Shown: positions 40,971 to 64,000 of the stretch, piece after piece | Position numbering within the stretch: the stretch's first letter is position 1 | Layout: every line of letters starts with the position of its first letter | NCBI GenBank assembly: GCA_965279375.1 | Contig: OZ257156.1 | Coordinates: 2,112,001 to 2,176,000 of the forward strand | DNA length: 64,000 nt | Direction: 5' to 3' | From: Gemmatimonas sp. | GTDB taxonomy: Bacteria; Gemmatimonadota; Gemmatimonadetes; Gemmatimonadales; Gemmatimonadaceae | Program-made: the position numbers and the translations under genes | Notes under the pieces: generated by a model | Seen by the model: the letters and a program-made list of their open reading frames with translations, nothing else | The model's database searches: none | Told to the model about the DNA's origin: nothing

Positions 40971-41002
40971 CGGATCGCCTCGCGACAGCGCGAGGCGATC
41001 CG
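40971..41002. terminator. Perfect 14-bp GC-rich hairpin between convergent genes
   Basis: CGGATCGCCTCGCG-ACAG-CGCGAGGCGATCCG; no U-tract. Confidence 0.65.
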
Positions 41003-53601: not shown

Positions 53602-55395
53602 CTACGGCTTCGTGTACACCACCTTCCCATCAAACACCGTCAACTCACAGGTCATGTCCTTGAGCGCTTCGGTCTTCACGGCGTAGGGATCGCGGTCCCA
53701 CACGGCGAGGTCGGCGTATTTGCCTACCTCGATGGAGCCGATCTTCTTCTCCATGAACATCTGGCGTGCGGCCCAGATGGTGACCGCGCGCAGCGCGACG
53801 TGCACATCCACCGATTCCGTGCGCCCGAAGGGATCGGTGGTGCCGTTTGACAAGAGCGTCTGCCGTGCCACCGCCGACCAGATGCCGTAGCGCGCCGCAA
53901 AGGGCGTGACGCCAAAGTCCGAGCCGTTGGCCCACGTCATGCCGCGCTTGAGAAACGTCGCAAAGGGATTGAGACGCAGCGACCGCGCCGGCCCAAAGTT
54001 CGCGGCATAGGTATCGCCCAACCACCAGGCAAAGGTCGCCGACGGCTCCGGATACCCCGCGTCAAAGTCATGCTGCAGGCGCGCCATCACGTCGATCGCG
54101 TGATCGCTCGGGATGTTGGCGTGAATGATCCCGTGACGCAGTCCCTTCTTCGGGTTGGCCGCGATCGCCTGCGCGTAGCTGTCCACCGTGTAGTCGATCG
54201 CCTGATCGCCGATGGAGTGCACGCTCACGTGCATGCCCGCATCGTGAAAGAGGCGAATCATTGCGCGAATGGTGTCCGGATTGGACGCGGGATAGCCCTT
54301 GTTGCCCACGTCGATCTCGGTGCCGTTCTTGTTCCAGTCGTCGTAGAGCCACGCGGTACGCGCACCGCCGCTGCCGTCCATATACAGCTTCGCGCCGCCG
54401 GCGATCACATGATCGTCACCGGTGCTTTCGTACGGCCGAGTGGTGGCGGCGCGTTCGGCGATGAGCGTACGCGCTGATGCCGTCGTGCTGCCCCCGCGCC
54501 ACAGCGCAAACACGCGCACGGGGAGTTTGCCTTCGGCGGCCACGCGCTTGTATGCGTCGAACGTCGCGCCATTCATGCCAGGGTCCTTGAGTCCCGTCAT
54601 CCCTTCGGCCACGAACGCCTGCGCAAGATCGCGCAGGCCGGCCTCGGTCTGCTGGATGCTGCGCCCGGGAATGAGACGACGCACGAGTCCCTGCGCGGAC
54701 TCCTTGAGAATGCCGGTGGGCGTGCCATCCGGATTGCGGTCGATCGTTCCGTTGGGTGGATCGCGCGTGTCCTTGGTGATGCCCGCCTTGGCCAGTGCGA
54801 CACTGTTGGCCACGCCGTAGTGGCCCGTGGTCTGCTGCAGCCACACGGGATTGTCCGGCGAACTCGCATCGAGGTCTTTCGCCGTGGGCAGGCGACGTTC
54901 GGCGAACTTGCCTTCATCCCAGCCACGCCCTTCCACCCAAGCACCCGCGCCGACCTTTCTGGCCTGCGCGGCAACGGCGGTCGCCATGTCAGCGATGCTC
55001 TTGGCCGCGGGGTAACCCACATCCACCACGAACAGTCGATCGCCTCCGCCGCCCGAGAAGTGATTGTGCGCGTCGAGCAGCCCTGGCGTGACGCTCCGCC
55101 CCTTGAGATCGATGCGCTGCGTTGATGGACCCGCGAGTCGCAGAATCTGCGCGTCGGTGCCCACGGCCACGATCTTATTGCCGCGAACGGCAATCGCTTG
55201 CGCAATGCGATCCTTTGCATCGACGGTGATCACGTGCCCGTGCAGGAGCACGAGATCGGCGCGCGGCGCCTGCTGCGCGCCGATCTCGAGAGACGCGGTG
55301 CCCAGGGCGCATGCAGCAAACGCGGCCAGCACCCAGGGTGCCGCCGCGTTCGTGTGTAACCGCCTGTGGATTCGTTGACCTGTGGAACGGACCAT
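53602..55395 (-). CDS. Amidohydrolase_3 (YtcJ-like) secreted amidohydrolase
   Basis: PGLLDAHNH, PTGILKE, KLYMDGS, HSIGD, GSDF, GSIEVGKYADL; TAATG overlap with the kinase gene. Confidence 0.9.
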   Translation of the reverse strand: MVRSTGQRIHRRLHTNAAAPWVLAAFAACALGTASLEIGAQQAPRADLVLLHGHVITVDAKDRIAQAIAVRGNKIVAVGTDAQILRLAGPSTQRIDLKGRSVTPGLLDAHNHFSGGGGDRLFVVDVGYPAAKSIADMATAVAAQARKVGAGAWVEGRGWDEGKFAERRLPTAKDLDASSPDNPVWLQQTTGHYGVANSVALAKAGITKDTRDPPNGTIDRNPDGTPTGILKESAQGLVRRLIPGRSIQQTEAGLRDLAQAFVAEGMTGLKDPGMNGATFDAYKRVAAEGKLPVRVFALWRGGSTTASARTLIAERAATTRPYESTGDDHVIAGGAKLYMDGSGGARTAWLYDDWNKNGTEIDVGNKGYPASNPDTIRAMIRLFHDAGMHVSVHSIGDQAIDYTVDSYAQAIAANPKKGLRHGIIHANIPSDHAIDVMARLQHDFDAGYPEPSATFAWWLGDTYAANFGPARSLRLNPFATFLKRGMTWANGSDFGVTPFAARYGIWSAVARQTLLSNGTTDPFGRTESVDVHVALRAVTIWAARQMFMEKKIGSIEVGKYADLAVWDRDPYAVKTEALKDMTCELTVFDGKVVYTKP

Positions 55396-59574: not shown

Positions 59575-61221
59575 CTATGCCTGTGATGGATCGACATCCC
59601 CTGTCGGAAGCAGAGGCAATCCCAGCTCTCGCAGGAATCCATTGTGTGTGTCCCGCGCCTTCCTAATCTCCTTCTCGATCGCCATGAGTGCCTGGTTCGT
59701 GGCCGTCAGATCAATCTCCTCCTCACCAACCGCTGTGCTGATGTAGCGGGAGATGTTGAGGTTGAAATCGTTTTTCTCGATCTCCGCCATCTCTACCCGG
59801 CGGGCGTATCGCTCGATGGGCTTCTCAGGTCGCTGTTGATACGTGTCGACGATCTTCGCAATGTGCGCGGCGCTGAGCTGGTTCTGGCGCTTGCCCTTCT
59901 CGAAATGTTCGGCGGCGTTGATGAACAGCACATCGTCTGGCTTCTTGCACTTCTTGAGCACGAGGATGCAGACCGGAATGCCCGTCGAGTAGAATAGATT
60001 GGCGGGCAGGCCGATCACGGTATCGATGTGACCGTCCTTAAGCAGCTTCGTACGAATGCGTTCCTCGGCGCCGCCCCTGAACAGCACGCCATGGGGCAGG
60101 ATGATGGCCATGACGCCTTCGTCCTTGAGGAAGTGGAAGCCGTGCAGCAGGAAGGCGAAATCGGCGGCTGACTTGGGTGCGAGGCCGTGGCTCTTGAAGC
60201 GCACGTCGTCGCCCATGCTCTCGCCGGCGTCCCAGCGGTAGCTGAACGGCGGATTGGCGACGATGGCGTCGAAGAGCGGCTTCCTGGCCGGGTTCGGCTC
60301 GCGCAACATGTCCCACTCGTTGAGCAGTGTATCGCCGTGGAAGATCTCGAACTCCGTGTCCTTCACCCCGTGCAGCAGCATGTTCATGCGTGCCAGGTTG
60401 TAGGTGGTGATGTTCTTCTCCTGGCCGAAGATCTTGCCGATCGTGCCGCCGTCTTTGGTCACGCGCTTCCGCACGTTGAGCAGCAGCGAGCCGGAACCGC
60501 AGGCGAAGTCCATTACCCGTTCCAGCCGCTTCTTCGTACCGGTATTGGGCTCCTGACTGTCCAGCGTCACGATGGCGGAGAGGATGTCGGAGATCTGCTG
60601 CGGCGTGTAGAACTCGCCCGCCTTCTTGCCGGACCCCGCGGCAAACTGGCCGATCAGGTATTCGTAGGCGTCGCCGAGCGCGTCGATGTCCGTCGAGAAC
60701 TCGTTGAGCCCTTCGGCGATCTTCTGGATGACGGTGCAGAGCTTTGCATTCTTTTCGGCCTGAGTCTTGCCCAGCTTGGGCGAATGCAGGTCGATCTCCG
60801 AGAACAAACCCTGAAAGGTGCTCTCGAACGATTCCGTCTCGATGTACTTGAAACCGTCCTGCAACGTGCCCAGCAGCTCGCCGTTCTGCGTGCGGGCCAG
60901 ATTGGCGATACTGTTCCATAGGTGTTCCGGTTTGATGACATAGTGCACCTTGCGCCGCATCTGCTTCTCGAACTCCGGGATGTCATCCACGTTGTTCGCG
61001 TACCACAGCGCCAGCGGCACCTTACGGGCTTCGCCGCCGGTGTCGGGGTAATCCTTGCCCAGTTCCTTCTTCGCCGCCGTCTCGTAGTTGTCGGAGAGGT
61101 AGCGCAGGAAGAGAAACGAGAGCATGTAGTCGCGGAAATCGTCCGCATCCATCGCCCCGCGCAGTTGATCGGCGATGCTCCAGAGCGTATTGCCGAGTTG
61201 CTTCTGAGTGGTCTCGCTCAT
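59575..61221 (-). CDS. hsdM: Type I restriction-modification methyltransferase subunit (m6A)
   Basis: LWSIADQLRG, GDAYEYLI, GEFYTP, DFACGSGSLL, NPPF, LPHGVLFRG. Confidence 0.97.
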   Translation of the reverse strand: MSETTQKQLGNTLWSIADQLRGAMDADDFRDYMLSFLFLRYLSDNYETAAKKELGKDYPDTGGEARKVPLALWYANNVDDIPEFEKQMRRKVHYVIKPEHLWNSIANLARTQNGELLGTLQDGFKYIETESFESTFQGLFSEIDLHSPKLGKTQAEKNAKLCTVIQKIAEGLNEFSTDIDALGDAYEYLIGQFAAGSGKKAGEFYTPQQISDILSAIVTLDSQEPNTGTKKRLERVMDFACGSGSLLLNVRKRVTKDGGTIGKIFGQEKNITTYNLARMNMLLHGVKDTEFEIFHGDTLLNEWDMLREPNPARKPLFDAIVANPPFSYRWDAGESMGDDVRFKSHGLAPKSAADFAFLLHGFHFLKDEGVMAIILPHGVLFRGGAEERIRTKLLKDGHIDTVIGLPANLFYSTGIPVCILVLKKCKKPDDVLFINAAEHFEKGKRQNQLSAAHIAKIVDTYQQRPEKPIERYARRVEMAEIEKNDFNLNISRYISTAVGEEEIDLTATNQALMAIEKEIRKARDTHNGFLRELGLPLLPTGDVDPSQA

Positions 61222-62228
61222 GGCTTGGTGCGTCGCTTGATAGTGGACTCCAGCGCATCGAGGTCAGCGGCGTCTTGCTGGTCGGCCTGCTGTGCTTCGC
61301 GTGTTCTGCGCTGCAGGTCGAACGCGAGATAGAGCTCGCCGGTACGAGCTTCCATGTGTTCGTGACTGATGGAGCCAGCGTGCGTGAGCAACGGGAATCC
61401 GTTCGAGCTGATGATCTGATCCACGTTATGCTTCCAGAATTCCATGCGCGTGTCCTGTTTGGACTTGGCGCGGAGCTCGGCGGTTTCCAGAAAGATGACC
61501 ACCAGCCGGTTCAGCGTATCGATCTCGTCTTCGGTCAGGTAGTTCTTCGCGACGACGATGTCGGTCTTTCGCACTTTGTCGCCCTTCCAGGCGAGCAGCC
61601 CGAAATGCGGATCGTCGGGATTGGCGCGAGCGGTAATGAGTTCAGCGGCGGTCTTGCGTGTTACTGCAAATATCAGAACGTTCTGCACGGTCGCAAAGAA
61701 CTGCTGTGTTGCTGAGTCGGTCTTGTCGTAGTCGCTGGACAGCGCGAAGAGATCGCGCACTTTCTGATAGAATCGCTTTTCCGAGGCGCGGATGTCCCGG
61801 ATGCGCTCCAGCATCTCATCGAAGTAATCCGGTCGGCCGTCCGGGTTCTTCAAGCGTTCGTCGTCCATGACGAAGCCCTTGATGAGGTATTCCTTGAGGA
61901 CGGTGGAGGCCCAGCGCCGGAACTGCACCCCACGCGGCGAGCGCACGCGGTAGCCCACGGCAAGAATGGCGTCGAGGCTGTAGAGGGTGACCGGGCGCTG
62001 CACCTCGCGGTTGCCCTCGGTTTGAACTACCGAGGATTCCTCGGTAGTTGCCGTCCGGTCCAACTCCCCTTCCTCGAAGATGTTCTTCAGATGCAGCCCG
62101 ACATTGTCGGAGCTGACATTGAACAACTCCGCCATGTCTTTCTGCGTCAGCCAGACAGTTTCGTCTTTGGCCCGCAGCTTGATCTGGCTGCGACCATCGT
62201 CGGTGGTGTAGAGGATCAAGTCGTTCAC
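61218..62228 (-). CDS. rhuM: RhuM family DNA-binding protein
   Basis: TVWLTQKDMAELF, HLKNIFEEGEL, AVGYRVRS, QFRRWA, EYLIKGFVMDDERLK, RIRDIRASEKRFY, AKNYL. Confidence 0.92.
   Translation of the reverse strand: MNDLILYTTDDGRSQIKLRAKDETVWLTQKDMAELFNVSSDNVGLHLKNIFEEGELDRTATTEESSVVQTEGNREVQRPVTLYSLDAILAVGYRVRSPRGVQFRRWASTVLKEYLIKGFVMDDERLKNPDGRPDYFDEMLERIRDIRASEKRFYQKVRDLFALSSDYDKTDSATQQFFATVQNVLIFAVTRKTAAELITARANPDDPHFGLLAWKGDKVRKTDIVVAKNYLTEDEIDTLNRLVVIFLETAELRAKSKQDTRMEFWKHNVDQIISSNGFPLLTHAGSISHEHMEARTGELYLAFDLQRRTREAQQADQQDAADLDALESTIKRRTKP
62025..62049. repeat. Perfect 12-1-12 palindrome inside the rhuM coding sequence
   Basis: AACTACCGAGGA-T-TCCTCGGTAGTT; encodes (A)TTEESSVV on the minus strand. 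Confidence 0.95.
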
Positions 62229-63460
62229 GGGGGCGTGACCGGCGTTGCTGAAACGGCTCCGCGAACCGCTGGAGCGATGTCCGGCAGCGAGAACTGAAAC
62301 TTGGTGGTGAAGTCCCGAAGGATGCGGCGGAACAACTCCTGGTTGTCCTCGCCCATCTCGGTCGGCTCGTGAATGGCGTACTTGCCGTGACTCAGAAGAT
62401 TCAGAGCGCGGTTGTAAAGCGCGAGGTCTTCCTCGTTGTCCAGTGCCTTGAGGCAGAACCCAATGTCAGCGTGCCCGAAGAACGACGCGGTCTTCTCCAG
62501 GATGCTTCGCAGGGCGTTGAAATGAAACGTGTAGAGCTTGCCAGTGGCGGGATCTGCGGCCAGCTGCAGCTCTGCCATCGTTGCAACGTGATGGAAAAAC
62601 GGCGTGTCCTCTGTGGCGCGGAGTGTGTACGTCCCATCCGAGTTCGGACGGTGCAGGAAATAGCGCTTGTGCCTCACTGCCGGCGCGCCCTCCTTGGACC
62701 TGCCGATCTCATTGCACATCACGTTGAAGAACAGCGCATGGTGGGATGAAAACACCACCTTGATGGGAGCGTCGTTGCCATCCGCGCCCGTCCGGCTCGC
62801 GGCCCGGCGCACAAGGTTGGCAAGGTCACAGGCGACGGCGATGGCGTTGTTGTCGTCCAAGGACGAGATCGGGTCGTCTATATAGAGGTATTTCACGGCC
62901 GGAAACGCGCCGGGAAATTTCAGAACCTGTTCAGCAATGGCCATGAACACGCACCAGATGAAGATGTTCTGCTCACCACGCGAAATCTTTATCTGCGACT
63001 GATCACCTTTACCGAAACTGACGAAAACGGGCCTGGAGAACGACTCACTTCCCCGCTGCACTACCTCGTACGTGAAATCAAAGCTGAAGTCCGCGTAGCG
63101 CTTCAGGTATTCATCTATGACGGGCTCCAGAGGCTCATTCTTGAATGCATCAAAGAAACGCGACCCTTGGTTGATATTGAGACCGCGAGCGGTGTCGTTC
63201 TCAAGGTCGTTGTCCCAAGTGAAGAGATCCTCGGTGAAGGCATTGAAGTAGAGACAGTCAGCGATACCCTGCGGATTCTTCTTGCTCTTGCGTTTTGCGG
63301 CGTTTTTGAACTCCATGGACAGTCGCGTCTTACCGGTGCGGTTGTACGCGAAAATGAGCACAAGCTCTAGGGGACTCGTCGGATTGTTTAGATCATCCCG
63401 CAGCCTGGTCGCCAACATTCGGAGATTCGACAAGCGATGAATCCTTGGCTTTGCTCTCAT
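62225..63460 (-). CDS. prrC: PrrC family anticodon nuclease (ABC-ATPase + HEPN RNase)
   Basis: Walker A AYNRTGKT, PrrC box FNAFTEDLFTWDND, signature ISRGEQ, Walker B YIDDPISSLD, H-loop SSH, nuclease motifs LRSILEKTASF and NRALNLLSH; lies between hsd genes. Confidence 0.9.
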   Translation of the reverse strand: MRAKPRIHRLSNLRMLATRLRDDLNNPTSPLELVLIFAYNRTGKTRLSMEFKNAAKRKSKKNPQGIADCLYFNAFTEDLFTWDNDLENDTARGLNINQGSRFFDAFKNEPLEPVIDEYLKRYADFSFDFTYEVVQRGSESFSRPVFVSFGKGDQSQIKISRGEQNIFIWCVFMAIAEQVLKFPGAFPAVKYLYIDDPISSLDDNNAIAVACDLANLVRRAASRTGADGNDAPIKVVFSSHHALFFNVMCNEIGRSKEGAPAVRHKRYFLHRPNSDGTYTLRATEDTPFFHHVATMAELQLAADPATGKLYTFHFNALRSILEKTASFFGHADIGFCLKALDNEEDLALYNRALNLLSHGKYAIHEPTEMGEDNQELFRRILRDFTTKFQFSLPDIAPAVRGAVSATPVTPP

Positions 63461-64000
63461 GCCTCAACCTCTGCCGATGTTGGGAAAAGCCGCTGCATCA
63501 GCCCGCGCTTGTGGCGCTTCAGGGCTCCGAGTCCTCGCGCTTCGGCGGTGATTAGGGCGTCGACTACGCCGAGGCAGGTGCCTATGCGTTGTTGCTCGGC
63601 AGGCGAGGGGAAAGACACCTCCATGTCAAGTATGTCGGTCCGGGACAACCCGGGTATCAGGTTTCCCGAACCCAAGTCTGCGAAGCGTCTCCTCTTCGTG
63701 AGCAGGAATTGAAAAATGAACTGGCTCGATCCTCGTTTGGCGCGAATGGCCATGAGTTGGCGTCCCAACGCTACCGCCGGCAGAGTCGAAAACCACACTT
63801 CTCCAACGCCGCTTCCCTTTACCGTGATCAACGTGTCGTTAGGCGCTGCCACGTTCGCTGACCGTTTCGTCCACTTACAAACGTTCTCCACGTCATTGGT
63901 AAAGTCGGAAGGACCCGTGAAGTAGGGTACTTCTCCCGTTGTGCTGTATTGGTTGGGCGACAAATGCAATCCCGAGATCAAATGAACTTCGCTGGACAGG
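63457..64000 (-). CDS. hsdS: Type I RM specificity subunit, C-terminal part (runs off the window)
   Basis: Frame open to the window edge; TRD-like region then PSPAEQQRIG...LKRHKRGLMQRLFP conserved helix; ATGA overlap with prrC. Confidence 0.9.
   Translation of the reverse strand, partial: LSSEVHLISGLHLSPNQYSTTGEVPYFTGPSDFTNDVENVCKWTKRSANVAAPNDTLITVKGSGVGEVWFSTLPAVALGRQLMAIRAKRGSSQFIFQFLLTKRRRFADLGSGNLIPGLSRTDILDMEVSFPSPAEQQRIGTCLGVVDALITAEARGLGALKRHKRGLMQRLFPTSAEVEA

Follow-up and report, generated by a model that had tools for sequence, protein, structure and literature searches.

The gene rhuM in a 64,000-nucleotide stretch of the Gemmatimonas sp. genome (assembly GCA_965279375.1, contig OZ257156.1, positions 2,112,001 to 2,176,000 of the forward strand; this whole stretch is called the window, and positions are counted from its first letter) carries a palindromic DNA site within the codons for its own DNA-binding region. 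Comparison of this site with its counterparts in related genes and in phages makes it very probable that the RhuM protein binds the palindrome of its own gene. Whether the palindrome serves, beyond that, as a self-immunity safety catch on a probable anti-phage protein, a catch that phages have come to mimic, we consider evenly balanced. The gene and its site are placed as follows.

61218 to 62228, minus strand: rhuM, 336 amino acids, Pfam family Virulence_RhuM, PADLOC candidate PDC-S05
62025 to 62049, no strand: palindromic DNA site of the family design 10-5-10, encoding minus-strand RhuM codons 60-68
62025 to 62034 and 62040 to 62049: the two arms of the site, with the A/T-rich spacer at 62035 to 62039 and the centre at 62037

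Conservation of the palindrome in rhuM genes

An earlier note, made from the letters of the window, had pointed to a perfect 25-bp palindrome in the coding DNA of rhuM, and the 25-mer is indeed found at 62025-62049, with perfect 12-bp arms around a 1-nt centre. It lies 180 nt into the gene, spans the last base of codon 60 through codon 68 and encodes the residues A-TTEESSVV, located after the helix-turn-helix; the Q that closed the peptide ATTEESSVVQ in the note falls just outside. The chance expectation given there, 0.004 per window, was too low, as 150 order-3 Markov simulations gave 0.053 per window, and the whole genome holds 18 perfect palindromes with arms of at least 12 bp and a loop of at most 1 nt, mostly GC-rich and terminator-like. 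Taken alone the palindrome is mildly rare; it is the comparison across the family that makes it striking. Two more perfect inverted repeats of the window, at 40971-41002 and 55251-55288, have 14-bp arms with loops of 4 and 10 nt and are likely terminators or chance occurrences. The stretch was matched without variants in four contig sets of one sample, possibly its source.

The first comparison set, obtained by similarity searches, comprised 207 loci, 10 of which could not be mapped; removal of 12 duplicates from the 197 mapped loci left 185 unique genes. At this codon register 182 of the 185 have 9 or all 10 of the outer pairs complementary, with 57 different 25-mers among the genes of this set, and the next best position within the gene holds a palindrome in 12/149. 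Since these genes had been selected by likeness to the query, a second sample was drawn by Pfam family from four phyla, made up of the best-scoring loci of each search and 40 fetched matches. Here 141 of 148 RhuM domains have at least 8 of 10 pairs at the register (86 are perfect) and the palindromes comprise dozens of different sequences, and only 2 of 9,999 other codon positions of the same domains, taken as a control, reach the palindrome criterion. On these sequence comparisons, conservation at one codon register puts the palindrome beyond chance. The enrichment that the note had expected at this position of homologous rhuM genes is thus present, and in codon-aligned genes the dyad symmetry is preserved by compensatory changes while the peptide varies. 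The peptide is less changeable than was supposed: it does not belong to the most variable segments in close relatives, where it switches between a few alleles. Because the central five bases are often unpaired across the family and the central three are 97% A/T, we describe the family design as 10-5-10. The 1-nt spacer stressed in the note belongs to this allele, and the accompanying view of a dimer-type site in double-stranded DNA rather than a terminator holds.

The constraint acts on the DNA sequence in the genes compared. In 38 genes that share this peptide, no variation is seen at five of the palindrome's codons (38/38 each), whereas flanking synonymous sites vary freely. Four pairs join two third-codon positions, where both arms could change without cost to the protein or to the symmetry, and 84 genes of this allele type contain zero symmetric synonymous double changes at those four pairs. 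From the absence of such free changes it follows that the sequence is kept and not mere symmetry. A dyad site within coding DNA is preserved here beyond the need of the protein, as an intragenic operator would be, and the compensatory changes under a varying peptide support the proposal that the segment is dual-coded for a peptide and a DNA site.

In-frame palindromes with 7-9 of 10 pairs, in an uncontrolled count, also occur in antirepressor-type genes (AntA-like, P22_AR_N, Bro-N and Rha; viral contigs L011-L016 and loci L659-L666), where they sit immediately before a similar wing motif.

Coupling of the site to the recognition helix and wing

RhuM matches Virulence_RhuM (PF13310) with E 3e-109 (364.5 bits against a cut-off of 33.7, model positions 1-250 of 252) and the PADLOC profile PDC-S05 with E 5e-149 over residues 2-333. 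An AlphaFold2 model was built from a 54-row alignment (mean predicted local distance difference test score, pLDDT, 84.7), replacing a single-sequence fold with a pLDDT of 43. It contains helices at residues 29-36 and 40-52, a beta-hairpin at 62-83, a long helix at 98-117 and a helical C-terminal domain; a winged helix-turn-helix is predicted, and the first strand of its wing is the palindrome-encoded segment. The best structural match was the DNA-binding winged helix of pSK1 Par (Z 7.8, root-mean-square deviation, rmsd, 2.3, 53 residues aligned), followed by DdrC (Z 6.2, rmsd 3.4, 85 aligned) and Mbp1 (Z 5.4, rmsd 3.3, 88 aligned); the last is a KilA-N-APSES protein, and RhuM has no KilA-N match in Pfam. 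No solved relative was found by sequence at E <= 1. Weak PHROG matches lead to the antirepressor Ant (E 0.001), and a P22_AR_N protein was not matched when profiles were compared. The protein is also predicted to form a homodimer, with a score of 0.71 against 0.00 for the best of 3 controls, contacts agreeing at 93% or more between runs and pLDDT of at least 80; at the mark set for this score, 20 of 30 solved pairs pass, as does 1 of 23 single chains. The predicted interface consists of helix 98-117 and the C-terminal domain, and the helix-turn-helix (28-50) and the wing lie outside the listed interface residues. RhuM-type domains also occur fused to unrelated C-termini, Fic among them.

62073 to 62144, minus strand: predicted helix-turn-helix, helices 29-36 and 40-52 (AlphaFold2)
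62094 to 62111, minus strand: codons 40-45 (S-D-N-V-G-L), which track the inner six base pairs of each arm
61980 to 62045, minus strand: predicted wing beta-hairpin, strands 62-71 and 74-83, whose type goes with the outer arm bases
61878 to 61937, minus strand: helix 98-117, centre of the predicted homodimer interface

Across the family, bases of the site are coupled to residues of the protein and alleles are swapped as modules. In 426 domains each core of the palindrome accompanies its own helix start, and for the two commonest cores the division into D41 and not-D41 matches the core in 125 of 125 genes. On a tree of residues 95-330 this combined state of core and residue 41 changed 42 times or more, and 12 of 12 independent pairs agree (p 0.0005). 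The outer-arm type is independent of both the core and residue 41; the outer arm bases follow the wing type instead. Codons 60-61, which lie between helix and core, also follow the wing, and a single linked block therefore cannot explain the coupling. Proteins with tandem domains repeat the pattern within one chain, as 25 of 150 representatives have at least two domains, with a different core and its matching helix in each. Between two and four tandem RhuM N-terminal domains were seen in P0123, P0131, P0158, P0163 and others.

The coupling was then resolved by position in 277 non-redundant domains, with mutual information computed on a thinned set of 138. Residues 40 and 44 are coupled with pairs 7-8, residue 41 with pair 6, residue 42 with pairs 4-5 and residue 45 with pair 3. 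When the base was predicted from the helix residues by leave-one-out, 91-100% of the predictions were correct against baselines of 41-75%, with relatives that are not independent of each other. The decisive test is the synonymous one, since protein packing is blind to a synonymous base and a protein-DNA contact is not. At pair 6, over five peptide classes, all 81 domains with C:G have Q, R or K at residue 41, and all 49 with T:A have another residue there; at pair 3, among genes with Arg63, A:T goes with Y or H at residue 45 in 14/14 and G:C with E45 in 54/55. A tree without the helix and palindrome columns, for which 12 close-clade rows were drawn at random, has 21 changes at pair 6, and 7 of 7 supported independent pairs agree (p 0.016). 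The close sister genes L595/L596 and L600/L601 have the same peptide with different DNA and a different helix. Because synonymous symmetric changes still track the helix, the coupling is to the DNA and not to the encoded peptide. Because of a stop, locus L203 is absent from alignment A1.

The window's own pair (D41, L45) obeys the rule, and in a genome of the same genus, at 85% identity, K40-Q41 stands with the sister core. By covariation, the variants of the protein and of the DNA element are paired as cognates. The earlier note had held that peptide and DNA site change together; the site does covary with the protein, and what it tracks are residues 40-45, about 20 codons upstream, rather than the peptide that it encodes. 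An allele-specific site of its own, also proposed there, is likely in view of the core/residue-41 covariation and the pair-by-pair covariation with the helix.

Sites in host genomes, gene neighbourhood and phages

In hosts the site is hardly found outside the gene, and the host genomes examined have one copy each. A search of the window's own genome for other copies, suggested in the earlier note, found none within 6 mismatches. Among five rhuM-bearing genomes four have one match each and the fifth has the other arm type, and 401 genomes of the same phylum together contain 8 matches, 4 of them in RhuM-domain genes. The flanks of 156 genes (1.39 Mb) hold 8 extra sites, mostly non-cognate; a cognate operator at the promoter was rejected, one near-cognate site being found among these 8. 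No sigma-70-like promoter was found in 59-64 kb. In L048, L051 and L128 a perfect non-cognate allele lies about 1.3-1.35 kb upstream of rhuM and is possibly the scar of an earlier rhuM, and in L519 and L520, two genomes of the same class as the window's, RhuM-type sites stand in a similar non-RhuM context.

The gene belongs to a type I restriction-modification operon with the following neighbours.

62225 to 63460, minus strand: prrC-like ABC-ATPase gene directly upstream of rhuM, 4-nt overlap (PADLOC PrrC, E 6e-125)
59575 to 61221, minus strand: hsdM of the operon, directly downstream of rhuM, 4-nt overlap
63457 to 64000, minus strand: 3' part of hsdS

Beyond the window the operon continues with the rest of hsdS and then an open reading frame of 1,061 amino acids in the place of hsdR, assigned by position. 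The restriction-modification/prrC/rhuM operon (59575-64000) has 57-60% GC against 65% for the genome, which is consistent with recent acquisition. The earlier note had suggested that the site controls hsdM. This does not hold generally: the palindrome is kept in close and in family-wide loci alike, yet hsdM comes directly after rhuM in 78 of the 128 close ones and in only 2 of the 81 family-wide ones. PF13310 matches were found in 18/201, 65/201, 48/121 and 37/101 genomes of the four phylum samples. In the accessible passages of papers naming RhuM, it appears as a neighbour of restriction genes or under a virulence label. One PDC-S05 member, expressed in E. coli B, lowers the plating of T7 and T5 about 1,000-fold and of T4 about 10-fold, according to the available passages of PMC12881386 and its preprint. 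IbfA was considered and set aside as unrelated, being described in the passages of PMC12111858 as an ATPase-TOPRIM protein.

Phages carry copies of the site that stand alone, as judged by match to the palindrome. This allele occurs exactly in 10 viral contigs, in 7 of them outside RhuM genes, and the sister allele in 28, in 26 of them outside RhuM genes. With eight positions left free at least 121 viral stretches matched, and 79 of the 80 that were classified have no RhuM flanks. With the codons left free at least 120 matched, 80 of which were classified, and the 62 unique non-RhuM matches retain the palindrome's codons (59, 56, 53, 53 and 47 of 62 at the five codons); the use of these codons outside RhuM therefore indicates that the DNA itself is kept. 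Among 74 unique viral sites 0, 1, 2, 3 and 4 mismatches were counted in 11, 33, 26, 4 and 0, the least-kept pair being pair 9 in phage copies as in genes, and 104 of the 148 half-sites fall among 20 half-site types seen in genes (7.8% expected). The copies are intergenic or lie in frame in unrelated genes, those for portal, primase, terminase, DarB-like and replication initiator proteins among them (25 of the 60 frames around them have a PHROG match). Of 40 carrier records, 21 of them at least 90% complete, 31 gave matches to none of the four families RhuM, P22_AR_N, Bro-N and Rha; AntA, KilA-N and ORF6N were not searched for. A loose pattern run over 40 phage records found its control about as often and is too unspecific for site counts.

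Different alleles are in places arranged in tandem arrays in phages (L208, L658). In a complete phage (G838; L658:1400-1480) three different RhuM-type palindromes abut with a period of 26 bp, and after them come a half-site and part of a RhuM helix; at L208:501-552 two alleles lie head to tail. Single copies were seen in various settings: an exact copy directly after tRNA-Met and tRNA-Gly genes in a phage (L211:340-525), with two further near-copies in the record; an intergenic near-copy beside ninG-like and Lar-like genes in Pseudomonas phage AH02 (MZ501271.1; L267:2501-2530); and another intergenic near-copy in Acidovorax phage AP1 (L268:2501-2526). Other palindromes accompany some of the sites. 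In one phage group (L239, L243, L247-L249, L258-L261, L266) the RhuM-type site has an unrelated palindrome of 26 bp at a distance of 100-130 bp, and three copies of a different imperfect palindrome, spaced about 73 bp apart, adjoin the exact site at L215:520-720.

Proposed mechanism, alternatives and known systems

The inner hexamers of the two arms are centred about 11 bp apart, that is, one helical turn. This spacing would suit a pair of recognition helices lodged in consecutive major grooves on either side of the A/T spacer, the outer bases being left to the wings. Each subunit would read the inner six pairs through residues 40, 41, 42, 44 and 45 and the outer bases through its wing, and a new helix or wing would force a change in both arms. 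Both arms would follow probably by recombination together with template-switch copying of one arm onto the other; template switching probably acts at the palindrome, where the three-base spacer and its reverse complement are both found in the same arm context (4 and 5 genes). The least certain steps are those after binding. RhuM bound to its site would be quiet and may also damp its own transcription, and it could be released by loss of the host chromosome or by replication of foreign DNA without the site. Phages T7, T5 and T4 degrade host DNA. A phage that replicates copies of the site might soak up RhuM, with the possible result that hosts evolve new helix/site alleles and phages gather collections of alleles. 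As the only cognate site lies in the gene itself, reader and target travel together, and we favour reading the site as a self tag because this also explains the phage copies. We extend this, with somewhat less confidence than the safety catch itself, to the suggestion that RhuM-type winged-helix domains form a very common and undescribed class of 'self-tagged' immunity proteins with the tag within their own codons. Such proteins would be quiet while the tag is present and fire upon destruction of the chromosome or replication of tag-less DNA, phages would counter them with pure-DNA mimics hidden in linkers and gaps, and the design would reach to antirepressor-type domains (AntA, P22_AR_N, Bro-N, Rha).

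Several points weigh against the safety catch or the coupling beneath it. One site per chromosome holds one dimer, and quenching would need tight expression control, spreading or allostery. The C-terminal domain is without recognised toxic activity among its structural matches (a search of the ESM Atlas with residues 120-310 returned only scores below 0.8), and the evidence for defence comes from one family member in one paper, as far as the passages of PMC12881386 go. The fold match is middling, a Z of 7.8 lying within the range given by common arrangements, and there was no Foldseek match at E <= 0.001. The core is followed in the alignments by residues 21, 22, 28, 30, 34, 38 and 39 and by some synonymous sites (27, 36, 44 and 47) as well. 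Helix and core often move together as a block, with linkage over codons 21-67, which leaves fewer independent origins than there are rows. At pair 3 the tree shows only 3 changes, with a single supported independent pair. Stand-alone sites are not confined to phages, hosts having a few as well (4 in the 401 genomes, 8 in the 1.39 Mb of flanks), and the counts for phages and hosts are not per base. Most phage copies are imperfectly symmetric (11/74 perfect) and 44 of the 148 phage half-sites lie outside the gene repertoire; the commonest half-site of the phage copies (24/148; L269-L348) is absent from the sampled rhuM genes and may represent a compromise site or have a different reader. Some phage copies may thus serve other readers.

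Among the alternatives, plain negative autoregulation is the most serious, even though we think it unlikely. A dimer on the intragenic site would act as a transcription roadblock that caps rhuM, and here also hsdM, and the phage copies would be relics or merely alter expression. Intragenic operators that block elongation are established. The same evidence for self-binding (the coupling of helix and bases and the predicted dimer) applies, and the position of the site 180 nt into the gene, with no cognate site in the flanks or elsewhere in the genome, agrees with such a roadblock, which is moreover compatible with the safety catch. Autoregulation leaves unexplained, however, why phages without RhuM keep the DNA of the site, often as several alleles, and why alleles turn over so rapidly (at least 42 changes, 125 genes). 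Titration of a pure autorepressor would raise the defence protein, and hsdM follows too rarely across the family (2/81) to be the general target.

It is improbable that the site is a point of recombination or module exchange, with the stand-alone and mixed sites as junction scars. Alleles and wing types do reassort freely, the left half-site travels with the left flank in one phage group, and both the non-cognate alleles 1.3 kb upstream of rhuM (L048, L051, L128) and the tandem arrays (L208, L658) could be such scars. But the top structural matches include no recombinase fold, the C-termini to which the domain is fused are unrelated (Fic is one of them), and recombinant genes have both arms matched, which crossover alone does not give; the left-flank pattern also fits the inversion and homogenisation of one asymmetric site.

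Lower still we place the reading in which RhuM binds its site and the phage copies are no decoys, serving related phage-encoded readers or recruiting RhuM for the benefit of the phage. The in-frame palindromes of the antirepressor-type genes, the half-sites outside the RhuM repertoire (44/148) and the 9 of 40 carrier records that match one of the four families (RhuM, P22_AR_N, Bro-N, Rha) speak for it. Against it stand the other 31 records, with none of these four families (AntA, KilA-N and ORF6N lying outside the search), and the palindromes of eight antirepressor-type genes, which differ from the stand-alone sites.

We give very little credence to an absence of function, in which template switching would keep an old palindrome perfect and diversify a tolerant beta-strand. 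Such switching homogenises arms and inverts spacers elsewhere (PMC8604942 and PMC5941160), and the occurrence here of the spacer and its reverse complement in one arm context would agree, but it predicts free symmetric synonymous drift, which is absent from the 84 genes; where symmetric synonymous changes are present they accompany a change of helix, and there would be no reason for a single fixed register or for phage copies. Least probable of all is an mRNA hairpin (terminator, RNase III site or RNA-binding site), for although the strand folds into an 11-bp stem (z -2.4), the mismatches have no G-U bias (32 G-U, 41 A-C and 35 other in 331 domains), the palindrome received no terminator call and no Rfam family (only a chance miRNA match far below threshold), phage copies keep the half-site sequence rather than the pairing, and the base-by-base coupling is to a helix of the major-groove type.

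The safety catch remains the reading that we prefer for the site, and the self-binding beneath it matters in several respects. PF13310 is a very common gene, long labelled 'virulence' without a mechanism, for which there is now a candidate DNA target with named specificity residues and natural allele pairs. Its reader and target within the same 100 bases would be inseparable by transfer and would have to change at three places at once, which makes them a new instance of overlapping codes. The natural alleles may be read as a recognition code from helix to DNA for a small winged helix. If the phage copies are decoys, they would represent a DNA-only counter-defence that is invisible to gene-based searches.

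Palindromic protein sites in coding DNA are familiar from lac O2 in lacZ and the PurR box in purB. These are stable and read by a regulator encoded elsewhere, whereas the RhuM site lies in the DNA-binding codons of its own probable reader and diversifies along with it. The middling structural scores with the winged helices of pSK1 Par, DdrC and Mbp1 reflect a shared arrangement, neither family membership nor function. Perfect inverted repeats in coding DNA, with multi-base symmetric changes and spacer inversion, are reported from the mitochondria of Nematomorpha (PMC6649704), from yeast (PMC8604942) and from proteobacteria (PMC5941160); these template-switch palindromes are many, scattered and without a known reader, in contrast to the one site of rhuM with its fixed register and coupled helix. 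Within its own family RhuM is a member of PDC-S05/Virulence_RhuM (PF13310), of which one member protects against T7, T5 and T4, and the passages of PMC12881386 give no mechanism, DNA-binding fold, dimer or internal site. The palindrome of rhuM was not found described in the literature, in a search with thin coverage of subscription journals.

The closest known parallel is BstA: several copies of its cognate DNA element, aba, suppress the protein when present in trans (Owen et al. 2021, PMC8585504, as far as the accessible passages go). Both systems have a protein that is anti-phage (probably so for RhuM) with an N-terminal DNA-binding domain and a cognate, co-encoded element that overlaps the gene; in the passages of PMC8585504 the BstA variants are allele-specific and extra copies of the element suppress BstA. 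The elements differ, aba being 63 bp long with terminal direct repeats and overlapping the start of the gene (the string 'palindrom' is absent from the available text of PMC8585504), and the element of RhuM a 25-bp palindrome inside the DNA-binding codons, with a readable base-to-residue code and in a host defence island. BstA is prophage-encoded beside a repressor, in the passages at hand, and rhuM lies between prrC and hsdM in a type I restriction-modification operon. Copies of the RhuM site stand in phages without the gene, unlike aba as those passages describe it, and suppression by the element, demonstrated there for aba, would for RhuM be the role that we propose. No BstA family is among the Pfam, NCBIfam or PADLOC matches of RhuM (25 of 39 PADLOC families listed). 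For the KilA-N-like N-terminal domain of BstA, RhuM offers the match to Mbp1 (Z 5.4), which ranks below that to pSK1 Par (Z 7.8), and no KilA-N hit in Pfam. RhuM is not a member of the BstA-aba system, and by analogy it may work like one.

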